64,000 nucleotides of DNA from an uncultured Alphaproteobacteria bacterium (lineage in GTDB: Bacteria; Pseudomonadota; Alphaproteobacteria; Rs-D84), in assembly GCA_944389515.1 (NCBI GenBank), contig CALXMQ010000001.1:7079-71078 (forward strand), written 5' to 3'. Positions within the stretch are counted from its first letter, which is position 1, and each line of letters starts with the position of its first letter. Position numbers and translations under genes: made by a program. The notes beneath the pieces were generated by a model. It did not search any database and was not told the origin of the DNA. It saw only the letters and a list, made by a program, of their open reading frames with translations. This document shows, piece after piece, positions 1,877 through 33,568 of the stretch.

Positions 1877-4066
1877 ATGAAACTAGGAATACTTTTTGCT
1901 GTGATATCTTTGATACCAGGGATTGGATTGGCGGCAACGCGTGATGATGCGACTGTGCGAATTGGTGTCAATCGTATGGCCCAGGCGGCGTCGCGTGCGC
2001 CAAATATGTCTGTGGATGTTTCTGCTGGTGCAAACATATCTGCATCAATGCCGACATTAAATGTAAATCCTGGGGTTTCTGGTTCTGGGGGTGGTGGTGA
2101 TACAACCCCAAGTGGCAGTGGCAATGTGTCCGATAATACAACGGGTTCGGGAAATGTGACGGTTGATGATGTGCCTGTGGCATCCAGCGAAACGTGTCGC
2201 GAAGCGTATCGGGCATGCATGGATGAATTCTGTTTGCTGGATGAATCCGAAGGAAACCGGTGTGCGTGTTCGTCAAATATCAATCAATCAAAATCTTTGA
2301 TTCAGGAAATTCAATCAATCCAAGAAGAAGCGGATTTGCTGTATACCGAAGGGGTGGAACGCGAACAAATGGGTGCCCAGGCTAAATTAGTGTTTGGTGA
2401 AAGTGAAGAGGCACAAAAAAGTTCACGTATATCAGGAATAAATTTTGCAGACTGGATAAACAGTGGTGTCGAAGAAGATGTCAGTTTGGGCAGCGACAGT
2501 GATATTGGTGATCCGTTATATGCAATGGCGGCAGAATTTTGTGCCAGCCGGTTGGATGCGTGTGGCGAAGATGCAGAAATGGAAGAATTTTTGTATGCAC
2601 GTCAAATTGTTCAAGACTGTAAAAATTTTGAATCATATTTGGAAGATCAAAAATCTATTGCAGAGGCAAATAAACGCACGGCTGAGGCCGCTGTACGTCA
2701 GGCACGTTTAGAAATGCTGGATACCACAAACAAATATAATCGTGGTGAATGTTTGTTGGCGTATCGTTCATGTATCGCGGACAAGGGCGGTTGTGGTGTA
2801 AATTTTGAAAACTGTTTGGATGCAGATTTATTACAGCGTCGTGCAAATGCATGTGAAAATGTGTTGGATCAATGTATGGCGGTGCGTGAATATGTTTTGC
2901 AAGATTGGCAAGACGAAGCGGTTAGTATTTTAACCGATGCTGCAAAATATGCAGACAGAAATGCGCGTGCAACATGTTTGGCACGTATTCAGTTATGCTT
3001 AGAAGACAGTTGTTCTACGGAAACAAATTCTGCGTGTTTAACAAATGTAAATGTTGCAGCAGGCATTTGTCCAGTTATTGATGAATGCGAAGAAATGATT
3101 CCGGGGATTAAATCGGTTGTAAATGACAAATTGGGGTATTTGCGTACCCAGTTCTGTCAAAATGATATTGATGCATGTTTGCGTGACAGATGTGGTGAAA
3201 ACTTTACCGCGCCAGAATGTGTTGGTAAAAGTGCACTGGAAATTGCGGCATTGTGTCCACAAGATATGTTCCCGTCATGCAGCAATGAAACACAATTTGA
3301 TATTATTGTTCAGGCCGCCATGTTGCAAATGGATTATCAGATGTTACAGGGATGCTTGAATTATTTCAGTGAACAGTTGGGTGCGGTGTGCGGTACGGAT
3401 ATGTCGTGCTTGCCAACTGATACGCAAATTGCGTCGTTGGTCGAAGTGCCAGATACCCAAGAAGATTTGGCCGCGTTGCGCGAAAGTGTGCGTGCTAATA
3501 CCGAAGCGGCGGTAAACGATTTCTTTGTTCAGTTTGAACAGGATAAAACGGTGGCCGCGTGCCAAGACAGTCAAAAGCCAGCAGATAGGGAAAGCCTGGG
3601 GGACAGTGTATTTAATTCTGCGAAAATGATTGCGCAAATAAATGCAGAAAATCGTTCTATGCGTGAACTGGAATCAAAAATTGCAGAATTATCGCGTGAA
3701 CAAGATTTAGAAGAAGCGGAAGAAAACTGTTATAACCTGTATCAGGTTGAAACACCAGACGAATCCAGTAAAAATTATAGTTATATCCGCAGTGTTACAT
3801 TTGAACCAGCGTTGCGTAATTGTCATGTTTGCCGTATGCAGCAAGTTTGTGAAACAGGTGGCCAGTCCAAAGGGGCGGCCGGTGCCCAGGGTGCGGCCGG
3901 TGGTTTGGCGGCTGGTGCGTCAGCAGGTACAATGGTGTCACCGGGTTGGGGAACAGCGATTGGCGCAGTTGTCGGTGCGGTTGGCGGATTCTTTGTTGGA
4001 CGCGAAGCTGGTGGTGAACAAGAATTCTGTCAGGAAATTGAAAGTTGTGAAGATATAAATATGTAA
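1877..4066 (+). CDS. Large Cys-rich secreted protein, family A paralog
   Basis: Start moved to the internal ATG at 1877 (MKLGILFAVISLIPGIGLAATRD, signal peptide; AGGA upstream). Contains CREAYRACMDEFCLLDESEGNRCACSS and dozens of further Cys. It has a Gly-zipper-like hydrophobic stretch near the C-terminus and ends CEDINM. Confidence 0.85.
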   Translation: MKLGILFAVISLIPGIGLAATRDDATVRIGVNRMAQAASRAPNMSVDVSAGANISASMPTLNVNPGVSGSGGGGDTTPSGSGNVSDNTTGSGNVTVDDVPVASSETCREAYRACMDEFCLLDESEGNRCACSSNINQSKSLIQEIQSIQEEADLLYTEGVEREQMGAQAKLVFGESEEAQKSSRISGINFADWINSGVEEDVSLGSDSDIGDPLYAMAAEFCASRLDACGEDAEMEEFLYARQIVQDCKNFESYLEDQKSIAEANKRTAEAAVRQARLEMLDTTNKYNRGECLLAYRSCIADKGGCGVNFENCLDADLLQRRANACENVLDQCMAVREYVLQDWQDEAVSILTDAAKYADRNARATCLARIQLCLEDSCSTETNSACLTNVNVAAGICPVIDECEEMIPGIKSVVNDKLGYLRTQFCQNDIDACLRDRCGENFTAPECVGKSALEIAALCPQDMFPSCSNETQFDIIVQAAMLQMDYQMLQGCLNYFSEQLGAVCGTDMSCLPTDTQIASLVEVPDTQEDLAALRESVRANTEAAVNDFFVQFEQDKTVAACQDSQKPADRESLGDSVFNSAKMIAQINAENRSMRELESKIAELSREQDLEEAEENCYNLYQVETPDESSKNYSYIRSVTFEPALRNCHVCRMQQVCETGGQSKGAAGAQGAAGGLAAGASAGTMVSPGWGTAIGAVVGAVGGFFVGREAGGEQEFCQEIESCEDINM

Positions 4067-4115: not shown

Positions 4116-6683
4116 ATGAAAACACGTGTCGTTTTGGGTTCTGTTGTATGTTTGATGATGTTGGTTGTGGGGGTGTCGTCGTATGCAGTGACAACATCAA
4201 AAAACAGTCGGCAATCTGCGATTGCCCAGGGTACAACTGTACGTACCAAGGTAGAAGCCACCGGTTTATATGACCAGGCATGTTATGATGCGTATTTTGG
4301 ATGTATGGATCAATTTTGTATAACTGATAATGCCAGTGGCGGCGCATGTAATTGCAGTAATACAATAAATGAATACAATACCGAATTAGCCGAGATTCAA
4401 GAAATATTAGATGAAGCAAATCGACTGCGTACCGAAGAAGTTGAACGTGTGCGTGCAGGGGCAGATGCTGATATCGTATTTACTGGTGAACGCCGTTATG
4501 ACGAAGATGGGAATATTTTGGCGGAAGGCACAATGACCGAAGAAGAAGAAAAGGAAAAACGGCGCGCTGATTTATTGGCTATATTTAATACCAGTATTTA
4601 TGATACGGGTGATGTTTTTGCCGAAGAAAGCACCGTGGCCAATATGGCAGATATGATTGGTGATGAATTATATAATGCCGCTAATGAATTATGTGTAAAC
4701 CAGGTGCCTGAATCTTGTGCTGGGGATATTGCATTTTTACAACAATTATATTCTCGGCAGATAACATCTGATTGTTTGGGGTATAAAAATTCTTTGTCCC
4801 AGCAACGTACAAATGCTGAAAATGAATTGGCGGCGGCGGAATCAGAAGTGCGCACTGCGTTAAAAGAAAGTTTTGAAAGTGCCAATAAATTTGATTTAGG
4901 GCAATGTATGGTCGAATTCAAAAAGTGTATGCAAACAGAAGATGCGTGTGGTGAAGATTGGGAAAATTGTGTGATGACCATTGCGTCTGAAAATATGCAG
5001 AATAATGCAGCAACCAGTACGGCTGGGACAACTGTGGATACGGTGGATACATATGATATAACCGCATCAACGATGGAAATGTTAAATGCGAAACGTCCTA
5101 TTTGTGAAAATGTTTTGGATCAATGTGTGGCGGTACGCGACCAAGTATGGCCTAATTTCTTGCGCGAAGCGGCGCCAACCATCAAGGTGGCCGAAGGCAT
5201 CGTTGAATCAAAATTCCGGCAATCTTGTTTGGCCAATATTTCTGAATGTATTACAACGGCGTGTCGTGATGATATCGCAGGCAAAGGTGTTGCAACAATG
5301 GATGCATGTTTGTCACGTCCGGAAATGGCGCGCAGTTTCTGCAAGGTGGAAATTGATCCGTGTGAACGTATGGAACCACTGATTTGGGGATATGTCGAAG
5401 ATAAATTGGCGGCAATGCGTGTCGATGCATGTACCCAAGAAGTCAAAGATTGCTTTACCGCAGATACACGCTGTGGGCCGAATTTTGAAAACTGTATCGG
5501 TATGGATTACGATTATATCCACGATATTTGTCCGATTGACAGTTTGGTTGTGTGCAAGGCGAATAATCCAAACTTTTCAATGGATGATTTGGACGATATG
5601 TTGATGGGATTGTATCTGAATATTGATAATTCAATGATGGATCAATGTCAGAATTTGGTTGATACTAAAATGGCTGAAATTTGTGGCAGTACGACAGATT
5701 GTAATCGATTTGCGTCTGATGATACGATTGGAACTGGTTCTTTGCGCAGTCAAAAAGATGGCAATGTTTATCGGGTAACTGGCATGATTTCGTTTGGCAG
5801 TATCAAAATGGGTGACATAGATGGTGAAACTGTTGATGATGGTGACGGTGGAACTGTTAAATTGGAACCAGGGGATATCGGTGTTGGCGAATATATTGCA
5901 AAAATTCGTGAACGTAATGCAGATGTACCAAATGCAGAGGCAATTATTGGCACAATCGAAGAAGAATTAAATAATATTGCTGGTACAATAAATCGGACAA
6001 TCGATTTGATAGAAAGTGATCCTGAAATTCAATATTGTGTCAGTGGACGTGATTTGTCGCAAATCACAGGCGAAGAAGGTGAATCAACAACAGGGCGTTT
6101 CCCGAACTTGTTGAACCAGGTAAAAATGCAAATTGCGGCATCGGCATTGCGTCAGGCCCAAGACAATTATAATAATAAATTGAATCAGGCGATTGCAGAG
6201 GCAACCAAGGATGCGTCCGCAGATTTGGCACAATATATGTGTCAAATGTTACCGACAACTGGTGGTGTTGTATTGGGGGGATTGGATGTTGATACACCAT
6301 TGACCACACCATATTCAATCAGTTACGATGTTGGATCTGGGTTGGATAACAGTTTATTGGTCCAGGGCGCTGGCCGTGGCAGTGGCGCCACCAGTGGAAC
6401 CGCATCAATGGATACAACCGCAGGTACCAGCCAGGCTGCTGAAATTATAAATTCGTTTACTGGTTTGGGGTCAAATCGTGTCAAGATAGATTTGCCCAGT
6501 GGTACGCGTGAAATGTGGTCTTTGTTTAATCGGGAAACACGTACATGCCATTATTGTACGTCTACGATTACGAAATCATGTGAATCAATCAGTAAAAAAG
6601 GATTCTTGGGCATTGGGGCGAAAAACGAATTGAAATGCACAGAATCCGAGCCTGTGGAAAAGTGCGAAGATATTGTGATGTAG
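4116..6683 (+). CDS. Large Cys-rich secreted protein, family A paralog (tandem to 1877-4066)
   Basis: 855 aa with signal peptide MKTRVVLGSVVCLMMLVVGVSSYA and GGAGAG RBS. Contains CYDAYFGCMDQFCITDNASGGACNCSN and CENVLDQCVAVRD (CENVLDQCMAVRE in the neighbour). Ends CEDIVM. Confidence 0.85.
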   Translation: MKTRVVLGSVVCLMMLVVGVSSYAVTTSKNSRQSAIAQGTTVRTKVEATGLYDQACYDAYFGCMDQFCITDNASGGACNCSNTINEYNTELAEIQEILDEANRLRTEEVERVRAGADADIVFTGERRYDEDGNILAEGTMTEEEEKEKRRADLLAIFNTSIYDTGDVFAEESTVANMADMIGDELYNAANELCVNQVPESCAGDIAFLQQLYSRQITSDCLGYKNSLSQQRTNAENELAAAESEVRTALKESFESANKFDLGQCMVEFKKCMQTEDACGEDWENCVMTIASENMQNNAATSTAGTTVDTVDTYDITASTMEMLNAKRPICENVLDQCVAVRDQVWPNFLREAAPTIKVAEGIVESKFRQSCLANISECITTACRDDIAGKGVATMDACLSRPEMARSFCKVEIDPCERMEPLIWGYVEDKLAAMRVDACTQEVKDCFTADTRCGPNFENCIGMDYDYIHDICPIDSLVVCKANNPNFSMDDLDDMLMGLYLNIDNSMMDQCQNLVDTKMAEICGSTTDCNRFASDDTIGTGSLRSQKDGNVYRVTGMISFGSIKMGDIDGETVDDGDGGTVKLEPGDIGVGEYIAKIRERNADVPNAEAIIGTIEEELNNIAGTINRTIDLIESDPEIQYCVSGRDLSQITGEEGESTTGRFPNLLNQVKMQIAASALRQAQDNYNNKLNQAIAEATKDASADLAQYMCQMLPTTGGVVLGGLDVDTPLTTPYSISYDVGSGLDNSLLVQGAGRGSGATSGTASMDTTAGTSQAAEIINSFTGLGSNRVKIDLPSGTREMWSLFNRETRTCHYCTSTITKSCESISKKGFLGIGAKNELKCTESEPVEKCEDIVM

Positions 6684-7193: not shown

Positions 7194-7221
7194 AAACCGC
7201 CCGTGTGGGCGGTTTGTTTTT
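7194..7221. terminator. Bidirectional intrinsic terminator between convergent genes
   Basis: AAACCGCCC-gtgt-GGGCGGTTT flanked by A-run and T-run. Confidence 0.7.
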
Positions 7222-7498
7222 ATTCAAGTGGACAGGGGGATGTAAATTCATATGTGCCAGTGCTGTCGGTGTAACTGATGCCGGTGGGGGCATACATTAT
7301 GCATGAACCGTCGGGATTTGATACCAAACAGCTGGTTGCCGTGCCGGCAGATGTATATCCGGATGGGCATGTACTGGTCGCGATTGTCATATGTGTTTCC
7401 ATTATTGTAACGTAACCCGTGGGACATGATGTAGACAGTGTTGCGGCAAATGCGGAATTTACCATAAATGCCATGTATAACATAATTATTTTTTTCAT
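7220..7498 (-). CDS. Small Cys-rich secreted protein (family B, minimal member); distal gene of cassette copy 1
   Basis: 92 aa, signal peptide MKKIIMLYMAFMVNSAFA, 8 Cys. Clear paralog of 22073-22375. The C-terminal GSCIMYAPTGISYTDSTGTYEFTSPC resembles the CYIP...G.Y.F...C module of the larger family B proteins. Confidence 0.8.
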   Translation of the reverse strand: MKKIIMLYMAFMVNSAFAATLSTSCPTGYVTIMETHMTIATSTCPSGYTSAGTATSCLVSNPDGSCIMYAPTGISYTDSTGTYEFTSPCPLE

Positions 7499-11765: not shown

Positions 11766-12590
11766 TCATATTTCCACAGGTGGCAAAATGGCGGTTGCAT
11801 TGGAATAATTGCACTTGCTTGTAAAAGTATATGTGCCTTCGGTTACATTTATGCTGCGGCCAACGGGTATATAACAATCTGTTATTGCATCTGAACCACG
11901 AAGACTGGTGCCGTATACTGTTGGATTGGAACCGGTTACACTGGGGCATTGTGGGCATGTGTATGTCACCATATTCAAAGAGGTTGTTGATGTTAAATAA
12001 TACCCGGCATTGCAACTTGGCTTGGCCGTGCCACCAGCACATGTTGCATTTGTGGGGCATGCAGCGCAGGTTTTTGCAGAGCCTATCGCTATCATTCCGC
12101 CGCGGTCATAATATCCACTGCGACATTGGTAAGCACACCTGCCTGCGGACACATCACATTTCATTTCGTTACCGTTGGTGGTTGATTCCCAATCTTCCAT
12201 GCCTTGGCATGGTAAACCTTGGCATATTTGTTGGCCTTGTTGTTCTTTGACACAGTTTGTCCATGTAACCAAGCAATCACGTGCAATGGATTGTTCGTTA
12301 TATCTGGTTTCCAGAATATATCCAGATTTGCAAGAATTACAATATGTTTTTGTATATGTTGCTGATGCTGCACCACCACTGGTACCATATGATGCATAAG
12401 ATATTGTTCCGGTGGTTGCGCAATATGATGTATTTGTTGCAGTTAAACCCGAATCGTTAGAACCCAGTACAACACCAGATATTGTGCGGCATGTTTCTGA
12501 ATACTGGCCACCGTCAACAACACTGGCTCCAGCAAAAACATTTGGGGTGATAAAGATTGTTAAAATAACGGATAAAATTAGTTTTTTCAT
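11766..12590 (-). CDS. Cys-rich secreted protein, family B (CxxCP / GYY repeats, CYIP C-terminal module)
   Basis: Start moved to ATG 12590 (MKKLILSVILTIFITPNVFAGA, GGGGA RBS). The 38 upstream codons of the tracked ORF are a translation of the conserved leader DNA. Motifs: CNSCKSGYILE, CRSGYYDRG, CAACPTNATCAGG, CNAGYYLTS, DCYIPVGRSINVTEGTYTFTSKCNY. Confidence 0.8.
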   Translation of the reverse strand: MKKLILSVILTIFITPNVFAGASVVDGGQYSETCRTISGVVLGSNDSGLTATNTSYCATTGTISYASYGTSGGAASATYTKTYCNSCKSGYILETRYNEQSIARDCLVTWTNCVKEQQGQQICQGLPCQGMEDWESTTNGNEMKCDVSAGRCAYQCRSGYYDRGGMIAIGSAKTCAACPTNATCAGGTAKPSCNAGYYLTSTTSLNMVTYTCPQCPSVTGSNPTVYGTSLRGSDAITDCYIPVGRSINVTEGTYTFTSKCNYSNATAILPPVEI

Positions 12591-12620
12591 ATGGATATCC
12601 CCTTGATTCAAGTTGTGGGC

Positions 12621-12784
12621 AACCCACCGATTTATTTCGGCAAAAAAGGGGATAAAAAAATCCCAGAAAACTGGGATTTTTGAAACAAATAAAAATGCCA
12701 CCATAATCGGTGGTTTATTTTCGGCATTTATTTATACCTATTTTACCCCAAAATCCGCCCACACGTCAATAGCATTTTTGACGT
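12621..12784 (-). promoter_or_regulatory. Conserved promoter plus leader cassette, type 2, copy L1
   Basis: Palindrome ACGTCAA-N8-TTGACGT (12763-12784). -35 TTGACG (12769-12764), N18, -10 TAAAAT (12745-12740). The leader carries CCACC/GGTGG and AAAAATCCCA/TGGGATTTTT hairpins with U-tracts. Nearly identical to 26216-26379 and similar to 33401-33565. Confidence 0.6.
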
Positions 12785-12830
12785 TTTTTACCGACCGTTT
12801 ATCTTCGGCAAAAATCAAAGGAATATCCAT

Positions 12831-13526
12831 ATGAAAAAACTGGTTTTATTTGCAACATATGTTGTCGGGATTGTAATGATGTTATCCGATAATGCATTGG
12901 CGGTATCGACCGTTGTTGGGGGAACGTGTCCCAATGGTCAAGTTTGGTGCAGTGTATATGCCATTGCTGGCGAAGGATGTTGTATTCCACAAGGAACATT
13001 ATGCACCAAGGATTCATGTGGGGGTGGCAGTACGATTATAGTTGCGTGCAAGGGATTGGAATGCGCAGGAAAAACGACTTGGTCTGATTATGGAACTGGG
13101 GGGGCGCAAATAAAATGCAGCACACTTACCGAAGATGGTGTATGTGAATATCGTTGTAATCCAGATGGATATTACAGATCCAGTATTGCTGAAAATGCAG
13201 GCATACGGTGTGAACCGTGTCCAGAACACGCAACGTGTACGGGTGGGCCTGTGCCATGTTGTAACCTGATGTATTATCCAGAAAAAAGTACCGCAGTGTA
13301 TCCGGGACTTACCGGCCAGGTAACAACGTATCAGTGTCTGAAATGTCCGTCGTATAGATGGTATTCTGATGATACCAGCAGTATGGGTATAACTATGTAC
13401 GGGATGACGCCGCCAAATGTTTGTGTGGGCAGTATTACTGCGTGTTATATTCCAGAAGGTACACATTCTGGTGACAAGACTGGACGATTTCAAATCGTAA
13501 ATAATAACTGTAATTATGTTGAATAA
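12831..13526 (+). CDS. Cys-rich secreted protein, family B
   Basis: 231 aa with signal peptide MKKLVLFATYVVGIVMMLSDNALA. Motifs: CNPDGYYRS, CEPCPEHATCTGG, ACYIPEGTHSGDKTGRFQIVNNNCNY. Confidence 0.8.
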   Translation: MKKLVLFATYVVGIVMMLSDNALAVSTVVGGTCPNGQVWCSVYAIAGEGCCIPQGTLCTKDSCGGGSTIIVACKGLECAGKTTWSDYGTGGAQIKCSTLTEDGVCEYRCNPDGYYRSSIAENAGIRCEPCPEHATCTGGPVPCCNLMYYPEKSTAVYPGLTGQVTTYQCLKCPSYRWYSDDTSSMGITMYGMTPPNVCVGSITACYIPEGTHSGDKTGRFQIVNNNCNYVE

Positions 13527-15762: not shown

Positions 15763-16064
15763 CTTGTTTACTGGATTGCCACGCCGTTCGCAATGACAAG
15801 GTAAACAAGTAATATATACTTGAATTCTCTAACCACCCCGTCGGTATAACCGCCACCCCTCCAATGGAGGGGAACTGGCTGTATACCATTGCGGAACAAA
15901 GTTCCCCTCTGCGGAGGGGAGGGCACAATCGGGCCCCACGAAAATGCAATTTTCGTGGGTGATTATTGCCACCGGGGTGGTAACATCATTGACAATTTTA
16001 ATCACGAGTTACCAATTACCAGCGACAAGTAAAACGGTCATGCATACGCGCGGTGTGGCAATCC
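15763..16064. repeat. GC-rich hairpin island bounded by a 10-bp inverted repeat (REP/MITE-like element or structured RNA)
   Basis: GGATTGCCAC (15773-15782) is the reverse complement of GTGGCAATCC (16055-16064). Inside are at least 6 stem-loops: CTTGTTTAC/GTAAACAAG, CCCCTCC-aat-GGAGGGG, GGAAC-aaa-GTTCC, CCCCTC-tgc-GGAGGGG, CCCACGAAAAT-gca-ATTTTCGTGGG and CCACC-gg-GGTGG. The island is visibly more GC-rich than its flanks. Confidence 0.4.
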
Positions 16065-22049: not shown

Positions 22050-22075
22050 AAACGGGGCATTACCCCGTTTTTTTA
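22048..22075. terminator. Bidirectional intrinsic terminator
   Basis: AACGGGGCA-tt-ACCCCGTT flanked by A- and T-runs. Confidence 0.75.
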
Positions 22076-22375
22076 TCCAACAGGGGATATATTTATACCA
22101 GACATTGGACACGGTTCTGTAAATTCGTATGTGCCGGTATTATCTGTATAATTGACCCCGGTTGGCGCGTACATCATGCATGAACCATTTGGATTTGATA
22201 CCAGACAGCTGTATGCTGAACCAACAGACGTAGTGCCCGATGGGCAGGTGCCAGATTCAATGGTTAAATAACTTTCTGTAATAGCGACATAACCCGTGGG
22301 GCATGATGTTGATGGCGTGGCTGCAATCACACATGTTGGGGCGATTGCCATAATAAATACAAATATTTGCTTCAT
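22073..22375 (-). CDS. Small Cys-rich secreted protein (family B minimal member); distal gene of cassette copy 2
   Basis: 100 aa; aligns along its full length with 7220-7498 (SCPTGYVAITESYLTIESGTCPSGTTSVGSAYSCLVSNPNGSCMMYAPTGVNYTDNTGTYEFTEPCP). Confidence 0.8.
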   Translation of the reverse strand: MKQIFVFIMAIAPTCVIAATPSTSCPTGYVAITESYLTIESGTCPSGTTSVGSAYSCLVSNPNGSCMMYAPTGVNYTDNTGTYEFTEPCPMSGINISPVG

Positions 22376-25475: not shown

Positions 25476-25504
25476 AAACACGGGGCAAACGCCCCGTGTT
25501 TTTA
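25474..25504. terminator. Bidirectional intrinsic terminator
   Basis: AACACGGGGC-aaac-GCCCCGTGTT flanked by A- and T-runs. Confidence 0.75.
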
Positions 25505-26191
25505 TTATCCTGTAAATCTGTTTGAATAATAACAATCACCCCCGGTTATTGTGAAAAAGCCCGTATCATCCAAAGAATTTGTATTGTTTGGAATATAGCA
25601 TTCTTGGATTGATATTGCGCCGGGTTCGGACGTTGAACCATTGACAATCATTGGTGCAAATCCATCTTGAATAATCGTATATTGTGGGCATAGTTGGCAT
25701 GTATATGTGTTATCAGTTGTGTTCTTTTTACTGTAACGATTTTGGTTACATATTGGTGGCTGTGACCATATGGTACATGTTGCGTCATCCGGGCATTCAG
25801 CACATGCGCCTGCGCTGATTTGGCCATTTACGGTTGTTTTTGATGTGGCGTACCAATTTGATACACATTTATAAACACATTGGGCACTGCTTGTATCCTT
25901 TACACATTTTGCCATACGCCCAAGTGTTGCGGTGTTCCACGATGTTTCACTGGGGCATTCGTCGGGGCATTCTGTTTTATCGTCGTCATCATCGCCACCC
26001 CCAGGGCCAATTATACCACCGCATTCTGCGATACACCATATAGAGCTGGATGCACAGCAAATTGTTGGACTGCTGCTGCATAAAACTTCGTTTTCGCGGC
26101 CTGCGATTGGGCATGGTTGGGTCAAAGATGTTGTTGCATATGCCACAGATGCTGAAAATATTACAACAAGTGCAAAGAATATTTGTTTCAC
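25505..26191 (-). CDS. Cys-rich secreted protein, family B
   Basis: Start moved to GTG 26191 (VKQIFFALVVIFSASVAYA, GGGGGA RBS). The upstream 36 codons of the tracked ORF are leader DNA. Motifs: CVSNWYATS, CAECPDDATCT, ECYIPNNTNSLDDTGFFTITGGDCYY. Confidence 0.8.
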   Translation of the reverse strand: MKQIFFALVVIFSASVAYATTSLTQPCPIAGRENEVLCSSSPTICCASSSIWCIAECGGIIGPGGGDDDDDKTECPDECPSETSWNTATLGRMAKCVKDTSSAQCVYKCVSNWYATSKTTVNGQISAGACAECPDDATCTIWSQPPICNQNRYSKKNTTDNTYTCQLCPQYTIIQDGFAPMIVNGSTSEPGAISIQECYIPNNTNSLDDTGFFTITGGDCYYSNRFTG

Positions 26192-26215
26192 TGATATCCC
26201 CCTGGGTTTGTTTAC

Positions 26216-26379
26216 AACCCACCGATTTATTTCGGCAAAAAAGGGGATAAAAAAATCCCAGAAAATTGGGATTTTTGAAACAAATAAAAACGCCACCATA
26301 ATCGGTGGTTTATTTTCGGCATTTATTTACATCTATTTTACCCCAAAATCCGCCCACACGTCAACACCATTTTTGACGT
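26216..26379 (-). promoter_or_regulatory. Conserved promoter plus leader cassette, type 2, copy L2
   Basis: Palindrome ACGTCAA-N8-TTGACGT (26358-26379). -35 TTGACG (26364-59), N18, -10 TAAAAT (26340-35). The leader is nearly base-for-base identical to L1. Confidence 0.6.
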
Positions 26380-26568
26380 TTTTATCAGTGTTTTTATTTA
26401 TATTGAATTTCTGTTAAAACCAATGATTCTGAAAAAGAGACGGTTTTATTTAATCTGATAATCAATCTGTCCACAAAATTTCATTTTTCATGACAGCAAT
26501 ATTGATAATTGTAATCTGTCTGTTTCGATACAGGAATAAAAAAACACCCAAAATGGGTGCTTTATTTC

Positions 26569-26653
26569 TGGTGGCCCTGGTCGGACTCGAACCGACACTC
26601 CTTGCAGAACTTGATTTTGAGTCAAGCGCGTCTACCAATTCCGCCACGGGGCC
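26569..26653 (-). tRNA. tRNA-Leu (anticodon CAA)
   Basis: 85 nt: GGCCCCG acceptor, GGCGGAATTGGTAGACGC D-arm, anticodon stem CTTGA/TCAAG with loop CTCAAAA, long variable arm, GGTTCGAGTCC T-arm, encoded CCA. Confidence 0.9.
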
Positions 26654-26671
26654 AAAACGCAATACAACAAA

Positions 26672-27046
26672 TTATTTTGTTGCAGCCTTGCGTGATTCAA
26701 CCTTTTTAACCAAACGTGCACTGCGATTCGCTTTGTGTGTTGGTTTTTTTGTTGGTTTTTCCACTGTGCCAATCTTTTTATTGATGGCCTTTTTTATAGC
26801 CGCCATTTCAGGTGTTAAACGAGACGGTGATTTTGACATCACATACGCATCCAGACCGCCATGCTTGGTCAATGTACGCAGGCCAGCCGTTGAAATACGC
26901 AGTGAAAAATCGCGATTCAAAATATCGCTGTGAAATTTTAACTTTTGCAAATTGGGCAAAAATGTACGCTTTGTATGACGTTCAGAATGCGATACGTTCA
27001 TACCAACCATTGTTTTTTTGCCTGTAACTTTACATACGCGTGGCAT
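26672..27046 (-). CDS. rpmB: 50S ribosomal protein L28 with a Lys-rich C-terminal tail
   Basis: Start moved to MPRVCKVTGKKTMVGMNVSHSERHTKRTFLPNLQ (AAGGA RBS). Canonical L28 N-terminus. Confidence 0.9.
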   Translation of the reverse strand: MPRVCKVTGKKTMVGMNVSHSERHTKRTFLPNLQKLKFHSDILNRDFSLRISTAGLRTLTKHGGLDAYVMSKSPSRLTPEMAAIKKAINKKIGTVEKPTKKPTHKANRSARLVKKVESRKAATK

Positions 27047-27204
27047 ATTATAATCCTTTGATAACTGGGGCATAATTTATACTACAATTCCCAAAAAGTC
27101 AAGAATTGTTTTATTATTTTTTATACCGCGACAGTTTGCACATTATATCACAATTTTTTCAAATTGCAATGTGTTATGATAAATCAATGTTTTGATTCCT
27201 GTAC

Positions 27205-27234
27205 CTTGAAATTACATAAAATGCTACTATATAT
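27205..27234 (+). promoter_or_regulatory. Putative sigma-32 (RpoH) type promoter of clpB
   Basis: CTTG (27205-08), N18, CTATATAT (27227-34). Identical -10 element and spacing to the clpP promoter. Confidence 0.45.
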
Positions 27235-27263
27235 AGAGAAAAATAACAAGGAGATACATATCT

Positions 27264-29321
27264 ATGAATCCAGAAGAAATGCAAGAAACGCCAGAACAGG
27301 CGATTGCAAAATATACCACTGATTTTACTAAATTGGCGGCAGATGGAAAATTAGACCCGGTCATTGGACGTGACGAAGAAATTCGTCGCACTATCCAGGT
27401 TTTGTCCCGGCGTACAAAAAATAACCCTGTGCTGATTGGTAATCCGGGTGTTGGAAAAACAGCAATAGTCGAAGGTTTGGCCGAACGAATCGTATCACGC
27501 GATGTGCCCGAAAATTTATTGAACAAGAAATTGTTATCTTTGGATATGGGCGCAATGATGGCTGGCGCGATGTTTCGTGGTCAATTCGAAGGTCGGTTCA
27601 AGGCGATATTAAAGGCGGTCAAAGATTCTGATGGGCAAATTATTTTGTTCATTGATGAATTACATACATTGGTCGGCGCTGGCAAAGGCGAAGGTTCAAT
27701 GGATGCAGGTAATTTGATAAAACCAATGTTGGCGCGTGGCGAATTGCACTGTTTGGGGGCGACGACGCTGGATGAATATCGGCAATATATTGAAAAAGAC
27801 CCGGCATTGGCGCGGCGTTTCCAGCCTGTATATGTTGATGAACCATCTGTGGATGATACGATTTCAATTCTGCGTGGATTAAAAGAAAAATACGAAGGTC
27901 ATCATGGTGTTCGTATTTCTGATGCGGCGTTGGTATCCGCAGTGCGTTTATCGAATCGATATATCACAGACCGATTTTTGCCGGATAAAGCAATCGACTT
28001 GATTGATGAGGCCGCAGCACGTGTTCGTATAGAGGTTGCGTCAAAACCTGATAAACTGGATGAAGTTGACCGGCATTTGATGCAGTTGAAAATAGAACAG
28101 CAGGCGTTGAAAAAAGAAAAAGACGAAGATTCAAAAAAGCGGTTGAAAGAATTAGAAACAATTATCCGTGATACCGAGGCAGAATCTGCCAAACTGACCG
28201 CAGATTGGCGCGCAGAACAAGAAAAAATGCGTGCGTTATCTGATGCGATGGCAGCATTGGATGCCGCCAAAGCCGAAGTCGCCAGCGCAATGCGTAACGG
28301 CGATTATGAAAAGGCGTCTGCATTACAATACGGCAAGATTCCAGAATTGGAACAACAAATCAGTAAAATGAATACTGATGCGCGTGAATATAAAACTGTG
28401 TTACCAGAACATATTGCGGCCGTGGTCAGTAAATGGACTGGGGTGCCGGCAGATAAATTGAGTATGGAAGAACAATCAAAATTGTTAAACATAGAAGATG
28501 AATTGCGCAAACGCGTTGTTGGCCAAGATCATGCGCTGACTGTTGTTGCACGTGCGATTCGTCGCAGCCGCGCAGGGTTATCTGACCCACATCGGCCATC
28601 GGGCAGCTTTATGTTCTTGGGGCCAACAGGGGTTGGAAAAACAGAAGTTGCCAAAGCGTTGGCAGAATATCTGTTTAATGATGAAACGGCCATGACCCGT
28701 ATTGATATGAGTGAATATATGGAACCGCATTCTGTGTCACGTCTGATTGGCAGTCCCCCAGGATATGTTGGATATGAACAAGGTGGGGTTTTGACAGAAA
28801 GTGTTCGTCGTCGTCCGTACCAGGTTTTATTGTTCGATGAAATCGAAAAGGCAAATCCAGATGTATTTAACGTGTTTTTGCAAATACTGGATGATGGACG
28901 TTTAACAGATGGCCAGGGACATGTGGTAAACTTTACGAACACCATTATAATTATGACCAGTAATTTGCCTGATATGGATGCGGTCAAAAAACAATTCCGT
29001 CCGGAATTTATAAATCGTATTGACGAAATTGTATTCTTTAATCCGTTGGGCAAAGACGTTATGGCTGGGATTGTTAAAATCCAGTTACGTAATCTGGAAA
29101 ATCGTTTGGCAGAACGTCGGATAAGTTTGAACGTATCAGACAAGGCGATTAAATGGTTGGGCGATAATGGATACGATCCTGTATTTGGTGCGCGGCCATT
29201 GAAACGACTGATTACGTCCGCGGTCGAAGATAAAATCGCAGATTTGATTTTGTCTGGCACAGTGGGCGAAGGCAGCACCGTTGTTGTCGATGTTCATGGT
29301 AAAGATTTGATTGTCGAATAA
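27264..29321 (+). CDS. clpB: ClpB disaggregase lacking the N-terminal domain
   Basis: 685 aa starting near the position of the internal start of E. coli ClpB (..[44 protein letters not shown]). Both Walker A motifs ([16 protein letters not shown]) and the coiled-coil M-domain are present. No upstream ORF encodes an N-domain. Confidence 0.9.
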
Positions 29322-29352
29322 CAAACACGGGGCAAATGCCCCGTGTTTATTT
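29322..29352. terminator. Bidirectional intrinsic terminator
   Basis: AACACGGGGCA-aa-TGCCCCGTGTT between convergent genes. Confidence 0.7.
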
Positions 29353-30978
29353 TTGATTACCTATTATAAATCGACGCATTTGTGCAATTTTTTTCATGCG
29401 TTCGGTTTCCAGATATACTTTGGCTTTATTGCTTAGTTCCAATATTGCTGTGCCGTTTGACATGTTTGTTATTCCGTTGGCATAAATATTGTACTGGGAA
29501 AACTTTTGTTTATATTCAGGAATACGTGAACGTAAATTTACGTCATACACCATCCATGTCGGAATTGCTGGATATTTTGGATTATTTACAACTGTTCCAT
29601 GTATTGCCAAAACCGTGTTATCGCACAATAATTTGATTTTTGTGTCAACATGATTGCCAATAAATTTCACGCCGTTGATATAAATGTCATTGTACGTGCC
29701 ATCCAGTGTGGTTTTGATTGATTTTACGGTCACAGTTATGTTTTGATACTGTACGGCATTGGCGTTTTTACGCACGGTTTCTGGGGTGATAACTGGTTCG
29801 TCGTTGTGCAAAATATGATGCAACAAGTTATTTTGACGTGCCATATTGTCGGGTGTTGCGACTTGTATCAATTTGCACCGAACTTCATTGCCAGATTTAT
29901 TTATAATAACAGTATTACTTAGCGTGGCACGTGCCTTGATTTTGGGTGTGTTCATCGGCATAGAATACACTTGTTCAATTATGTCAGTATCAGAAATGAT
30001 GGTAAATCTGCGTGATGAATCGTGTGACATATATATTTTGTGCAAATGCGGTTCGTATCCAACAGATGTCAGCCCGTATTTTGAAAATGGCACAACGGTA
30101 TGGTTATTGACATCAATCACATACAGATTGAATTGATTGTCGCCTTTTTTCTTGCGTACGATGGCGATGTTTGTTTTGTCGTCGAACAAACATAAATCGT
30201 ATGGGGTACTTGCACCAGTCAATATTGGATAACCATTGTTTTGATTGGTGGTGTATAAATTAAATGTCCCATTTCTTGTTGCCTTGCAGTACAACGGTAA
30301 ATGAACAACATTTGGTTTTTCGCAATGTGGTGTGGCAACTGGTGCGACAGATGATTGTTTTTTATGGTGAACCCGGTGAAATGACTGGGTCACAGTATTA
30401 TAATTTGAAAATCGACGTGCCAATTCGGAATTCAGTTCAGCCGGTATTTCTTTGCCGGATGATTTATAACGCCCCAGTATTGTACGCAGTGATGTATCAC
30501 GCATTTTAGCGAATCGGTCTTTGGACTGATTCGTATTTGCAATGCGGCCACGCTTAAATATTTGTGTTGTTGGGTTATAGTTGGGGAACCGGCGCGCCAA
30601 TTCTGCGTTTAATTCATTATCAATTTGGGTACCTGATTTTTTTGTTTGATGATAAATTTGGCGCAGACGAATATCGGGCAATTCAGACAACGGTACTGAT
30701 TTATTACCCAAAGCTTTCGGTGGTTGTATCTTGGGAATTGACGTTTTTGTTTGTACAGATTTGCCGTCACTTTGCGTCGACATTTCGTTTGACGATATCA
30801 GTTCGTTTAATGCGCCCATAACAAAATTTATTGCTATTTTTTTTGCGATTGCATCAGACAGGTTTGCGGCCGTGCGCTGAAAATCACGAAAAGCTGCTGC
30901 CACAGTTTTATCACTTAAAATTTTTTCAGCCAGTTGTTCCAGAAAACTTTCCGACCCAGAATTTGTTGTTTTGGGCAT
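29347..30978 (-). CDS. Hypothetical protein with a tandem ~45-aa repeat
   Basis: 543 aa with no signal peptide. Two copies of a motif: ...TKKSGTQIDNELNAELARRFPNYNPTTQIFKRG and ...YKSSGKEIPAELNSELARRFSNYNTVTQSFHRV. The C-terminal two thirds look beta-rich. No family recognised. Confidence 0.7.
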   Translation of the reverse strand: MPKTTNSGSESFLEQLAEKILSDKTVAAAFRDFQRTAANLSDAIAKKIAINFVMGALNELISSNEMSTQSDGKSVQTKTSIPKIQPPKALGNKSVPLSELPDIRLRQIYHQTKKSGTQIDNELNAELARRFPNYNPTTQIFKRGRIANTNQSKDRFAKMRDTSLRTILGRYKSSGKEIPAELNSELARRFSNYNTVTQSFHRVHHKKQSSVAPVATPHCEKPNVVHLPLYCKATRNGTFNLYTTNQNNGYPILTGASTPYDLCLFDDKTNIAIVRKKKGDNQFNLYVIDVNNHTVVPFSKYGLTSVGYEPHLHKIYMSHDSSRRFTIISDTDIIEQVYSMPMNTPKIKARATLSNTVIINKSGNEVRCKLIQVATPDNMARQNNLLHHILHNDEPVITPETVRKNANAVQYQNITVTVKSIKTTLDGTYNDIYINGVKFIGNHVDTKIKLLCDNTVLAIHGTVVNNPKYPAIPTWMVYDVNLRSRIPEYKQKFSQYNIYANGITNMSNGTAILELSNKAKVYLETERMKKIAQMRRFIIGNQK

Positions 30979-31056
30979 ATCATCATCCTTGGGTTCATAA
31001 TTTTTTAATAATATTTTTTATGTGACGTTTTGCCCCATAATCAGATTTATACAATA

Positions 31057-32862
31057 TTATTTTTGTTTTTTATCCTTGAATTGAATATCACGCAGTTTTT
31101 TATATTCACCGTCCAATGCGACCAATTCTGAATCTGTACCTTGTTCTATGATTTTTCCATCTTTGACCACGCATATAATATCTGCATCCAAAATGGTTGA
31201 TAATCTGTGGGCAATTACAAATGTTGTACGTCCACGCATTAAATCGCGCAGTGCAGATTGAATTTGTTTTTCACTTTGTGTATCCAATGCAGACGTGGCT
31301 TCGTCCAACAATAATATTGGTGCATCTTTTAATATTGCACGGGCAATAGCGATTCGTTGCTTTTGCCCACCAGACAATAACGCCCCACCTTCACCAACTT
31401 TGGATTTATATTTATGCGGAAATGCCATAATAAAATCATGGGCGTTTGCCGCACGTGCCGCGGCAATTACTTGTTCTGATGTGGCGTTTGGGGCACCATA
31501 TTTTATATTATCTTCGATTGTACCATTAAACAGAAATACGTCTTGGGATACTTCTGCAATATTTTGACGTAATGATTTCAGTGTATATTTCTGGATATCG
31601 GTATTGTTTATTTCGACTTTGCCACGTTGGGGTTCATAAAAACGTTCAATTAAATTGAACATTGTTGTTTTACCACCACCAGACGGCCCAACTAATGCGC
31701 ATACTTTGCCAGCCGGCACGTTCAAATTTATATCACGCAAAATCGGTTCACCAGGCGTATATTCAAATGATACATGGTTGAATTTGACCGACAGTTTCCC
31801 AGGTTTTAATTCACGGGCATTTGGCGCATCGACAATATCTGGCTTGCTGTCCAGGAAATTAAACAAAACTTCGGCAGCCAACAAACCATGTTGTACGGTG
31901 TTGCTGGTGCTGGTAATGCTGCGCGCTGGTTTATACGCCGCGGTCAACGCCAATAAAAATGCAGTAAAATCACCGGTTGTAATTGCACCAGTCACAATAA
32001 AATGCCCACCTGCAATCAAGGCCAAACATAATCCGATTGAAATCATCAGTTCCAATAATGGTGATTGCAGTGCAAATGCCTGGGTTCCTTTGTATGAGTT
32101 TACCATTGACGAATTCAAAACACGTTCGAATTTTTTTGTTTCTGTATCTTCATTGGCAAATGCCTGGATTGTTTTAATGCCATGCAATGTTTGATTCAAA
32201 TGTTGGGATACATCGTTTGCAATACCAAACGATTCGCGTGATAATTTACGCCGGCGACGCATAATTAAAACCATTGGTATCATTATCGCAGGCACTAAAA
32301 ATATCAATATCGCGCATAATTGTGGGGCATAATAAATCATCAACCCCAATGTCATTGCCAATGTTGCAATTTGTTGAACAGTACTGATAAGTGTCCCGGT
32401 AACCAAATTCAAAACAGCACCAGCCTGGACACTGAAATAATTCAAATGTTTACCAATTCCATCGCCATAGAAATTGGAAATATTCATTTTTACCATATGG
32501 TTATATATGCGCTTTTGCAAATCTGCGCTGGCGTTCAGACCGGCTTTGGCCATTATCAGTGATTTAGCGTAACTGAATATTCCCTTGAATCCAAATGCAG
32601 CGATAACTTGCAGTCCGAAAAAGTAAATATGCGCCATACTTTTTTGTATAAACGCCTTGTCTACAACCTGTTGTACCAGGGTGATTGTATATGCTTCGGC
32701 TGCTGCCGCACATATTGTTGCGATTACGCCGCACACCAACCATTTCCATTGTGGTTTGCCGATTTCGCGCCATACACGCCCATATAAAGACCATTTGATA
32801 CGGGCGTTATTTTCATCGCCCCGGATAAGTTTTTTTATACTTTTCTTTATTTTCTGTAACAT
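31057..32862 (-). CDS. ABC transporter, fused permease/ATPase (MsbA-like exporter)
   Basis: Start moved to MLQKIKKSIKK. Six-TM ABC exporter domain followed by Walker A GPSGGGKTT, signature LSGGQKQRIAIARA and Walker B ILLLDEATSALD. Confidence 0.85.
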   Translation of the reverse strand: MLQKIKKSIKKLIRGDENNARIKWSLYGRVWREIGKPQWKWLVCGVIATICAAAAEAYTITLVQQVVDKAFIQKSMAHIYFFGLQVIAAFGFKGIFSYAKSLIMAKAGLNASADLQKRIYNHMVKMNISNFYGDGIGKHLNYFSVQAGAVLNLVTGTLISTVQQIATLAMTLGLMIYYAPQLCAILIFLVPAIMIPMVLIMRRRRKLSRESFGIANDVSQHLNQTLHGIKTIQAFANEDTETKKFERVLNSSMVNSYKGTQAFALQSPLLELMISIGLCLALIAGGHFIVTGAITTGDFTAFLLALTAAYKPARSITSTSNTVQHGLLAAEVLFNFLDSKPDIVDAPNARELKPGKLSVKFNHVSFEYTPGEPILRDINLNVPAGKVCALVGPSGGGKTTMFNLIERFYEPQRGKVEINNTDIQKYTLKSLRQNIAEVSQDVFLFNGTIEDNIKYGAPNATSEQVIAAARAANAHDFIMAFPHKYKSKVGEGGALLSGGQKQRIAIARAILKDAPILLLDEATSALDTQSEKQIQSALRDLMRGRTTFVIAHRLSTILDADIICVVKDGKIIEQGTDSELVALDGEYKKLRDIQFKDKKQK

Positions 32863-33015
32863 GAAACTAATTATAAGTGGTGGGGCAAATTCTGTCCAGT
32901 GAAAGATTAAAATCATGTTTTTTCATTTTTAATTTGACAATATTACTAAATATGTATAAAATTTGTGAGCTTTCAAAGAGTTTTGAAAAGCAAAAATATA
33001 AAAAAGCAAAGTTTT

Positions 33016-33091
33016 GGGGTTGTAGCTCAGTTGGTAGAGCACCTGCTTTGCAAGCAGGGGGTCGTCAGTTCGAGTCTGATCAGCTCCACCA
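33016..33091 (+). tRNA. tRNA-Ala (anticodon UGC)
   Basis: 76 nt: GGGGTTGTAGCTCAGTTGGTAGAGCACCTGCTTTGCAAGCAGGGGGTCGTCAGTTCGAGTCTGATCAGCTCCACCA. Has the G3:U70 pair and anticodon loop TTTGCAA. Confidence 0.95.
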
Positions 33092-33125
33092 TAAAAATAA
33101 ATGCGTCAAAGGGGGTGAATATACG

Positions 33126-33332
33126 ATGGTGAAAGTTCTGGTTCGCGACAATAACGTCGAACAGGCATTGCGCGTTGCAAAACGTAAATCACAAAAAGAA
33201 GGCCTGTATCGCGAAATGAAGGAACGTCAGCGTTATGAAAAACCAACAACTAAACGCAAACGTTTAAAAGAAGAAGCCGTGCGTAACGAAAAGAAACGTC
33301 AATCAAAACAACGTATGGTCTTTGGATTCTAA
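33126..33332 (+). CDS. rpsU: 30S ribosomal protein S21
   Basis: Start moved to [46 protein letters not shown]. Canonical S21; the longer tracked ORF runs through the tRNA. Confidence 0.9.
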
Positions 33333-33339
33333 AAAAATA

Positions 33340-33366
33340 AATGCCGCCCGTTTGGGCGGTTTTTTT
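33340..33366 (+). terminator. Intrinsic terminator of rpsU
   Basis: CCGCCC-gttt-GGGCGG followed by T7. Confidence 0.75.
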
Positions 33367-33400
33367 GCATTTTTTGTTAAAAATACAAGTACTGATAAAA

Positions 33401-33568
33401 ACGTCAAAAATGGTATTGACGTGTGGGCGGATTTTGGGGTAAAATAAACATAAATAAATGCCGAAAATAAACCACCGATTAAAATCGGCGTTTTTATTTT
33501 TGAAAAAATCCCCATTTTCTGCATTTTTTATTCCCCCTTTTTTGCCGAAAAAAATCGGTGGTTTTATT
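33401..33568 (+). promoter_or_regulatory. Conserved promoter plus leader cassette, type 2, copy L3 (more diverged)
   Basis: Palindrome ACGTCAA-N8-TTGACGT (33401-33422). -35 TTGACG (33416-21), N18, -10 TAAAAT (33440-45). Leader ATGCCGAAAATAAACCACCGATT...TTTTTTGCCGAAAAAAATCGGTGG. Confidence 0.55.

Follow-up and report, generated by a model that had tools for sequence, protein, structure and literature searches.

The block at positions 26216-26379 of the stretch presented here raises a simple question: is the conserved DNA upstream of a gene for a secreted cysteine-rich (Cys-rich) protein a fixed control region, or is it a segment which changes orientation? The stretch, which we call the window, comprises 64,000 nucleotides (nt) of contig CALXMQ010000001.1, from an uncultured Alphaproteobacteria bacterium of the Rs-D84 lineage. 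A first-pass annotation, made from the sequence alone, described the block as a promoter-plus-leader cassette, with RNA- or peptide-mediated attenuation as a possible mechanism. Comparison with public assemblies leads us to a different answer. The cassette is quite likely a DNA-inversion phase-variation switch formed by two equal modules of 78 base pairs (bp), the promoter module P and the leader module T, and the switch probably turns a family of secreted Cys-rich proteins on and off. As an inverton-type system it belongs to a kind already known, in a form which is new. We use L1, L2, and L3 for the three cassettes in the window, L001 to L059 for stretches or loci from public assemblies, and IR0, IRL, and IRR for the recombination sites. 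Every state described below has been read from consensus assemblies of different samples.

The features of L2, the cassette of the block in question, are the following, all on the minus strand:

26335-26379, minus: core of the promoter module, with the palindrome and the -35/-10 match
26379-26358, minus: palindrome ACGTCAA-N8-TTGACGT (ACGTCAA 26379-26373, spacer AAATGGTG, TTGACGT 26364-26358)
26364-26335, minus: -35 box TTGACG (26364-26359), 18-nt spacer, and -10 box TAAAAT (26340-26335), 10 of 12 consensus positions
26322-26227, minus: upstream open reading frame (uORF) of 31 codons, from ATG 26322 to TAA 26227, peptide MPKINHRLWWRFYLFQKSQFSGIFLSPFLPK
26303-26320, minus: left site IRL, with arm GCCGAAAATAAA (26320-26309) and core CCACCG (26308-26303)
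26308-26300 and 26227-26219, minus: inverted 9-mers, CCACCGATT and the complementary distal AATCGGTGG
26308-26293, minus: hairpin CCACC-gattat-GGTGG, followed by a U run
Within the leader, minus: hairpin AAAAATCCCA-attttc-TGGGATTTTT
26259-26244, minus: hairpin GGGAT-tttttt-ATCCC, followed by U6
26225-26302, minus: invertible T module, 78 bp from core to core and 72 bp between the 9-mers, inverted in L059
26219-26224, minus: core CGGTGG of the right site IRR, part of AATCGGTGG
25505-26203, minus: target gene, with Shine-Dalgarno (SD) sequence AGGGGGA (26203-26197) and GTG start (26191), coding for a secreted Cys-rich protein of 228 amino acids (aa)

The palindrome, promoter, hairpins, complementary 9-mers, uORF, ribosome binding site (RBS), and GTG start which had been described for this block are all present. 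The start codon of the uORF (26322-26320) sits in the flank of the IRL arm. In addition, the alignments place CCACCGATT and AATCGGTGG at the two ends of a DNA segment, T, which is invertible. The pair had been taken as a sign of attenuation; it is not an antiterminator helix, since it marks the ends of a segment which is physically inverted in other strains.

To describe these inversions, the corresponding features of the other two cassettes are needed:

12792-12797, minus: core of the upstream site IR0 of L1, CGGTCG in the window and CGGTGG in L009-L011 and L017, preceded by arm GCCGAAGATAAA
12714-12791, minus: promoter module P of L1, 78 bp between cores, with -35 box 12769-12764 and -10 box 12745-12740 (10 of 12 consensus positions), facing geneA
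12624-12713, minus: IRL core (12713-12708), T (12707-12630), and IRR core (12629-12624) of L1, spacing 78 bp, T inverted in L010 and L011
11766-12590, minus: geneA of L1, a family member of 274 aa
12831-13526, plus: geneB of L1, a divergent family member of 231 aa, which gets the promoter when P is flipped
33416-33445, plus: promoter TTGACG-N18-TAAAAT of L3
33472-33561, plus: IRL core (33472-33477), T (33478-33555), and IRR core (33556-33561) of L3
33562-34561, plus: gene body of L3

T is bounded by CCACCG(A/T)TT and AA(A/T)CGGTGG in all three copies in the window, and for all three loci its exact inversion is known from other strains. At L1, the sequence between these boundaries is the exact reverse complement in L010 and L011, with both flanks the same. 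At L2, T is exactly reverse-complemented at the same locus, next to clpX, in L059 (ERZ16268089), where the inversion junctions, marked by slashes, are AAACCACCGTTT/GTTTTCAGC...CGCCACCAT/AATCGGTGGG. The orthologue of L3 in a sister lineage, which we call lineage B (about 85% protein identity), has T forward in L020 and inverted in L018, L019, and L025, the latter a locus of a circular metagenome-assembled genome (MAG). Two paralogous loci of one MAG, L021 and L036, have T in opposite orientations. The contigs of L018, L019, and L059 are short and end at the cassette, at most a hint of assembly bubbles. The assemblies thus compared show recombination between IRL and IRR as the event which flips T, as far as products can be read from sequence.

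L059 came to light through a 228-aa variant of the L2 protein. Since gene callers include some leader sequence in the protein as an N-terminal extension, the length of a called protein reveals which state the leader is in, and the lengths vary with switch state (264/228, 312/274/328, and 367/350 aa). Public gene calls for the L2 protein start at an upstream ATG, as opposed to the 228 aa called in the window.

A different product is found in L017 (3100-3135, equivalent to 12624-12713 of the window). T is absent there, and the cores are joined head to head as a perfect palindrome, CCCACCG/CGGTGGG, a product which neither inversion nor simple slippage would predict.

The promoter module moves as well. 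L1 has a third copy of the site, IR0, upstream of the promoter and inverted relative to IRL, with the sequence GCCGAAGATAAACGGTCGG in the window and ..AAACGGTGGG in L009-L011. The 78 bp from IR0 to IRL, including the whole promoter, are reverse-complemented in L017, where the promoter abuts the divergent gene 12831-13526. An independent flip is found in a second species, which has the order geneB(<-)-IR0-P(->)-IRL-T-IRR-geneA in L022 and L041, and the order geneA(<-)-site-reverse complement of T-site-P(->)-site-geneB in L040; by its layout, the latter is the exact product expected of recombination between IR0 and IRL in the former. Where IR0 exists, as in L1 with its two divergent family genes, these arrangements show at sequence level an IR0 x IRL exchange flipping the promoter between the genes. 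In L027 and L030 the promoter directly abuts a gene, and T lies on the far side, beside a divergent family gene. Sites of different cassettes also recombine, since the same gene has different neighbours in L046/L038 and in L027.

We have also observed that IR0 is unstable (equivalent to 12790-12830 of the window): L014 has a 39-nt tandem duplication of IR0 and the start of the palindrome, and L013 a deletion which removes the IR0 arm.

These loci were not found by identity. Exact 24-mer scans of GTDB genomes and JGI metagenomes gave zero matches to the cassette, so a degenerate promoter-IRL pattern was required, which identified 17 stretches, distributed over 7 MAGs of a single clade, and a further 7 genuine loci from metagenomes. 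L043, L044, and L047, from a second scan with a degenerate pattern, were rejected as chance matches. A plasmid search did not find the cassette. Look-ups of window proteins in public assemblies recovered the same chromosomal region from many samples. The cassette is present in at least seven MAGs of gut Alphaproteobacteria similar to Candidatus Enterousia (Rs-D84); the MAGs are named Candidatus Enterousia intestinigallinarum and "uncultured Alphaproteobacteria", and one of them is circular, with 958,618 bp. Ca. Enterousia belongs to the order Rs-D84, bacteria of the animal and human gut with genomes mostly below 1 Mb (PMC12306168).

The three copies in the window are found at 12613-12814 (minus), 26208-26402 (minus), and 33371-33564 (plus). 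The near identity claimed between the block and 12621-12784 holds: the repeat finder gives 95% over 176 nt (12613-12788 and 26208-26383). The relation to 33401-33565 holds too, with a detail which had been left out. The arm 33378-33564 is 84% complementary to the L2 block, so L3 must be read from the opposite strand. In every copy the -35 and -10 boxes are found 5' of IRL, outside T, and the promoter hexamers with their 18-nt spacing are kept in the diverged lineage B (L018-L020), which was retrieved independently through its proteins. A conserved promoter-plus-leader cassette upstream of one family of secreted Cys-rich genes was correctly recognized. As for the gene conversion suggested earlier, the part which stands is exchange: marker nucleotides are mosaic among copies and strains, which fits exchange between cassette copies.

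The recombination sites have a common structure of about 30 bp, in which two 12-nt arms, the first similar to GCCGAAAATAAA, enclose an asymmetric 6-nt core (CGGTGG/CCACCG). The site is a near-perfect 12-6-12 dyad in several species or in one of its two states, for example GCCGAAAATAAA-CCACCG-ATTTATTTCGGC in L010 and GCCGAATCCAAA-CGGTGG-TTTGCTTTCGGC in L020. The order is [IR0]-P-[IRL]-T-[IRR]-gene, with IRL inverted relative to IR0 and IRR. In the window the arm-core motif is found at the six cassette sites only. There is one type of site throughout, with three cassettes in the 64 kb of the window and up to five found per MAG. In the 43 non-redundant cassettes where the partner core was found, T measures 77-79 bp from core to core and P 78-79 bp, and the sequence of T itself is diverged among them. 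The length of P is partly fixed by the search pattern, while the part from IR0 to the promoter and the whole of T are not. A single outlier is L036, where T measures 92 bp. The site centres are 84 bp apart. Phased A-tracts which might bend the 78-bp modules were considered and rejected: A/T tracts recur at about 12 bp and not at 10.5, and the sequences compared are not independent of one another.

Could these rearrangements be unprogrammed accidents, produced by template switching, hairpin-mediated rearrangement, or homologous recombination, in a cassette which is simply a common promoter and 5' untranslated region, with no switching? The repeats have only 9-12 bp, each alternative state is found in few assemblies, and the T-less palindrome of L017 is a non-canonical deletion product. 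The duplication of IR0 in L014 and its deletion in L013, as well as a 7.35-kb inversion described below, which could be plain homologous recombination, would also agree with accidents. Nevertheless, at least four T and two P inversions have occurred at the same nucleotide boundaries in different loci and species; the 78-bp spacing and the arm-core sites are conserved across species with diverged T; and the inverted orientation makes an in-frame start (SD, ATG, and signal peptide) which is conserved at the amino acid level. We consider this explanation improbable.

The same boundaries bear on the idea that the cassette is a miniature inverted-repeat transposable element (MITE) which happens to carry a promoter. 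Terminal inverted 9-mers and several near-identical copies would be expected of a MITE, and two copies lie downstream of transfer RNA (tRNA) genes. The terminal repeats and target-site duplications named earlier as signs of such an element have been checked. The inverted repeats exist, but there is no target-site duplication (the flanks are ..TAAA/CCACCG and CGGTGG/GTTG). All copies have the same register, upstream of a family gene or inside its 5' end, and no copies are found elsewhere in the window. A MITE is hardly credible.

What T encodes explains much of the leader. In most loci, in several species, the reverse complement of T reads arm, A-run, GGGGA, about 8 nt, ATG, and 16 codons: ATG CAG AAA TCT GGG ATT TTT TCA AAA ATA AAA ACA CCG ATT .. 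ATC GGT GG. It encodes a conserved peptide, MQKSGIFSKIKTPILIGG, behind an SD sequence and in frame, through the right core, with an ORF of 165-360 aa; the frame continues as the hydrophobic core of a signal peptide with an A-x-A-type cleavage site. At L3 the reverse complement of T has the SD sequence GGGGGA, an ATG (complement of 33522-33524), and 16 codons in frame with the gene, and the flipped form would start MQKMGIFSKIKTPILIGGFIVSGIILLEPQWAFS/YSS and have 350 aa. The L3 gene in the orientation of the window has no SD sequence and no ATG of its own, so this orientation is predicted to be OFF for the L3 type. A protein of the ON form exists in databases: P0047, with 352 aa, from L018/L019; L020 has forward T. 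Because the coding strand is the reverse complement of T, the U tracts noted earlier are for the most part antisense to the Lys- and Ile-rich coding sequence and to the A-rich spacer that precedes the SD sequence. On the same sequence grounds, the uORF is read as an antisense-frame by-product of the coding strand of T.

T of the L1/L2 type is different. Its ATG is changed to ATC, and the gene has its own SD sequence and start downstream of the right-hand site. A few changes have made a perfect hairpin, TCCCAG-N4-CTGGGA, between the A run and the T run. L2 in the window has T forward, with U-tract hairpins and the anti-SD sequence AUCCCC. For forward T of this type we predict a terminator-like hairpin of the left core with a U tract at the IRL junction, a strong central hairpin with U7, and pairing of AUCCCCUUU with the SD sequence of the gene. 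The computed probability that the SD sequence is unpaired is 0.00-0.01 in the forward orientation, as compared with 0.16 (L059) and 0.43 (L010) when T is inverted. The fold of the L2 leader RNA is better than 200 of 200 shuffles (z = -4.6), and there are 7 terminator-like matches where 1.1 are expected. From these models, forward T is likely OFF for the L1/L2 type.

These results also bear on the mechanism first proposed for the block, a fixed promoter controlled by an operator, with RNA- or peptide-mediated attenuation through the 31-codon uORF. Promoter, U-tract hairpins, and uORF all exist, and the palindrome overlaps the -35 box. But the leader segment is physically inverted in related strains, and the uORF does not have the conservation attributed to it. 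Its middle is rewritten between L2 and L3, at L3 it has no stop and runs into the gene, and in lineage B it stops after 8 codons (ATG CCT AAT CTA AAC CAC CGT TTA TAA); the conserved frame is on the opposite strand. The left arm of the palindrome is not conserved across species either (ACGGCAA, ACAGTAA, ACATCAA, or absent), which argues against an operator. The putative antiterminator partner strand lies 3' of the terminators. The Rfam comparison gave only tRNAs at the gathering threshold, a relaxed scan gave matches far below it, and no leader family is near. Attenuation by a fixed leader is very improbable.

A side observation concerns the palindrome. Its second half forms a weak divergent promoter match, TTGACG-N16-TATCTT or TATTTT (9 of 12; 12778-12805, plus, and 33407-33380, minus), which points away from the cassette, at L1 toward geneB.

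The switch may be summarized as follows. Module P would provide a sigma-70-type promoter within 78 bp between cores, and module T, downstream, another 78 bp. In the L3 type, inverted T would supply the SD sequence, ATG, and the first 16 signal-peptide codons in frame, giving the ON state. In the L1/L2 type, forward T would silence the gene through the hairpin plus U tract at the IRL junction, the strong bidirectional hairpin, and the anti-SD AUCCCC placed on the SD sequence of the gene; inversion would relieve the first and the last of these, not the bidirectional hairpin. An invertase of the Mpi family would act in trans on all copies, cutting at the dyad centre of the core.

The position of the crossover can be narrowed down. 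Three nt adjoining the core move with the inverted segment (L009 and L010; L001-type and L059), and a heterology at position 5 of the core (CGGTCG at IR0, CGGTGG at IRL) stays with P in both states (L022/L041 and L040). For these two reasons the exchange is placed within CGGT, containing the dyad centre G/T. In sequence terms, this fits a 2-bp cut of the serine type.

The best candidate for the enzyme is encoded in the window:

53469-54113, plus: candidate recombinase, Mpi-family master DNA invertase, a small serine recombinase of 214 aa (Pfam Resolvase, 5.9e-32)

It is the one small serine recombinase seen in the window, and it scores 307.9 bits against NCBIfam NF009949, "master DNA invertase Mpi family serine-type recombinase" (equivalog cutoff 272). 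The identical invertase is found in 113 collection blocks, always between an alpha-2-macroglobulin gene and a subtilase gene. Homologues with 78-93% identity fill the match list, and several of them (82-88%) are named 'master DNA invertase Mpi family' by NCBI. A related species has an orthologue with 88% identity which adjoins the same alpha-2-macroglobulin gene and lies upstream of rpsB and tsf, at a locus where the subtilase gene is missing. The invertase gene is inherited vertically as a core gene and does not belong to a mobile element. Mpi of Bacteroides fragilis works in trans on 13 dispersed invertible regions (PMC4747536), and deletion of mpi locks all seven capsule promoters (bioRxiv 10.1101/2022.10.31.514637). 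The chance that the homologue at 53469-54113 is the enzyme acting on the cassettes is roughly even or a little better. The sequence AAATCGGGGAGCCCCCACCGGG, found upstream of the invertase gene, resembles a site, but it is not kept at the 88%-identical orthologous locus and was discarded.

The same switch might have another catalyst, a Xer-like tyrosine recombinase with exchange at the edges of the 6-nt core, as for Xer1 of Mycoplasma agalactiae or MYPE2900 of M. penetrans. The 12-6-12 sites with an asymmetric 6-nt spacer would suit such an enzyme, and Mollicutes with reduced genomes use Xer-like enzymes for switches of this kind (PMC2268961, PMC3599477). A XerC/D-like tyrosine recombinase gene (L037 3756-4646, MAG BRZ_KL bin36) ends about 60 nt upstream of cassette L037_3690, in a contig with three cassettes. 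On the other hand, no tyrosine recombinase has been seen in the 64-kb window, where most long ORFs were scanned or appear in neighbour tables, and a tblastn search with XerD (an approximate query sequence) matched nothing in the window. P inverts in spite of the heterology at core position 5, CGGTCG versus CGGTGG, which is not exchanged and is hard to fit to a 6-bp homologous overlap. A Xer-like catalyst is rather unlikely.

We therefore return to the inversion switch with a serine invertase, against which several points must be weighed. The two orientations come from different assemblies, not from one clone. For an invertase synapse of any known type, 84 bp from centre to centre is a very small distance. 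The evidence which ties Mpi to the switch is circumstantial, there is a Xer-like gene near one cassette, and the 12-6-12 layout is also typical of tyrosine recombinases. The ON and OFF assignments are predictions, made from folding and reading frames. In the consensus of the window every family gene appears OFF; an ON copy may exist elsewhere in the genome. Finally, the central hairpin of the L1/L2 type is close to symmetric and still has a U5 tail after inversion, which may make the relief of transcription only partial. The full proposal, a single Mpi-family serine invertase which drives a combinatorial two-module switch (promoter flip and translation-start/terminator flip) through three sites exactly 84 bp apart from centre to centre, is tentative: we give it somewhat less than an even chance. 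If true, each invertible loop would span only some 8 helical turns, about half the length of the classical small invertible segments (PMC5903667), and the synapse would need an unusual geometry. A gut symbiont with a minimal genome would have a compact ON/OFF switch for each gene, together with a choice between genes A and B, by means of one common site.

The controlled genes form a hypervariable family. The downstream proteins are only 24-35% identical in pairs, as highly diverged as had been described; they have in common the cysteine positions and the C-terminal motif ..CYIP....G.Y.FT..C.YS, which in the L2 protein reads ..CYIP....G.F.IT..CYYS. No Pfam or NCBIfam match has been found for the family. 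At L1, RBS and start of geneA and geneB form a 37-nt inverted repeat (12572-12608 and 12813-12849). With its conserved signal peptide and C-terminus, this family of secreted Cys-rich proteins makes a good candidate for surface antigens or adhesins that take part in contacts with a host or partner.

The ON-form proteins of L037 and L045 have, after the common signal peptide, the repeats KGTVTD..GE.VIGASV.VKGTTNG, and a C-terminus of the family type, CYYxN. By eye, these repeats look like the N-terminal carboxypeptidase-regulatory-like domain of TonB-dependent (SusC-type) receptors.

A larger rearrangement involves two of the cassettes. L2 and L3 face outwards as inverted repeats around a 7.35-kb segment, 26216-33561, which contains tRNA-Leu, rpmB, clpB, a 543-aa ORF, an msbA-like gene, rpsU, and tRNA-Ala. 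The segment is inverted in L001-L004 and in lineage B, and collinear in L005. The genes keep their own type of T and the flanks swap, so the crossover must fall within the P module common to both cassettes or within IRL. Either homologous recombination or a site-specific exchange between the two IRL sites may be responsible. A finer mapping of the crossover with two P markers failed: the markers are mosaic, and L059 broke the association.

Several known systems resemble this one in part. Invertible regions of Bacteroides have roughly 170-230 bp and the mpl element of M. penetrans about 135 bp; RecV of Clostridioides difficile and MYPE2900 of M. penetrans are both tyrosine recombinases. The closest parallel to the proposed enzyme is Mpi (FinA) of B. 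fragilis: a recombinase of the NF009949 family encoded away from its targets (here presumed), with dispersed invertible promoters which govern surface molecules in a gut bacterium and have repeat sites in common (PMC4747536, PMC5903667). Here, in contrast, the host is an Rs-D84 Alphaproteobacterium with a genome below 1 Mb, the modules have 78 bp, a second module (translation start or terminators) is fused through the common site, the targets are single genes for Cys-rich secreted proteins, and the homologue is only a candidate for catalysis.

The cwpV switch (Cdi1) of C. difficile also has a promoter upstream of the invertible segment and a recombinase gene which is not adjacent; in one orientation, the left repeat and the adjacent inverted sequence form a hairpin with a U tract, a predicted intrinsic terminator at the left-repeat junction (PMC2784873). 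Its 21-bp repeats enclose 195 bp, and inversion is carried out by RecV (PMC2784873). T of the L1/L2 type contains neither a promoter nor part of an ORF, and its predicted forward hairpin at the IRL junction is of the same design as the OFF terminator of cwpV. The cwpV segment has no ORF, whereas in most family members the 78-bp T holds the SD sequence, ATG, and 16 codons, and occlusion of the SD sequence is a predicted additional component here.

In vsa of M. pulmonis and mba/UU172 of Ureaplasma parvum, inversion sites are found in or beside the 5' coding region, inversion sets which gene joins the promoter, RBS, and 5' end of the ORF, divergent pairs alternate, and the bacteria live with a host and have reduced genomes (PMC3047005). 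There, a single expression site is moved among silent genes over distances of kilobases, by means of tyrosine recombinases (proposed for Ureaplasma), whereas here there is one cassette per gene, with separate 78-bp modules for promoter and translation start, and a candidate serine invertase. The mpl family of M. penetrans is similar in that, as described in PMC3047005 (citing Horino et al.), each member of the surface family has its own very small invertible promoter with 12-bp inverted repeats, and the enzyme named is MYPE2900. It is a single module, with no separate leader or coding-start module. The 78-bp modules, the fixed spacing, the tandem promoter and translation-start modules with a common site, and the host clade are different from all the systems compared.

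Our literature search found no paper on phase variation in Enterousia or Rs-D84. This would be the first concrete regulatory system for the Ca. Enterousia-like Rs-D84 bacteria, so far described only by metabolic reconstruction (PMC12306168), and would provide plausible targets for the "Mpi-family master invertase" genes already annotated in alphaproteobacterial MAGs. A programmed invertible segment could then be as small as 78 bp, compared with 154-314 bp in the classical small switches (PMC5903667), and with spacing so strictly conserved, the geometry of recombination can be tested directly. Gene callers mis-annotate switch loci of this type, and the state can be read directly from metagenomic reads.

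Some other features of the window, which has a G+C content of 40.9% and includes genes for ClpX, ClpB, PolA, RecO, an MsbA-like transporter, and a CcrM methyltransferase (a set pointing to an alphaproteobacterium), should also be noted. A second, different invertible element is found at 15773-16064, between a DsbA-like gene and pgk. It has about 270 bp, is GC-richer, contains many perfect hairpins, and is bounded by GGATTGCCACGCCGT and CGGTGTGGCAATCC. L002, L003, L004, and L006 have this element inverted, L001 and L005 in the orientation of the window; we have detected no credible Rfam match for it. A 221-nt repeat with 72% identity (7229-7449 and 22106-22326) overlaps two minus-strand ORFs, 7220-7498 and 22073-22375 (about 92-100 aa), with no Pfam family in the neighbour tables; they may form a second small paralogous family. 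The adjacent ORFs 1796-4066 and 4116-6683, with 756 and 855 aa, have no Pfam match and have short repeats in common (families D5 and D9), probably as tandem paralogues of an uncharacterised protein. Finally, terminator hairpins with 90% identity, AAACACGGGGCAAAYGCCCCGTGTTT, are found after clpX and clpB (25476-25506 and 29323-29353), with looser copies at 8251 and 15182 (family D3). This hairpin is a reused bidirectional terminator motif.

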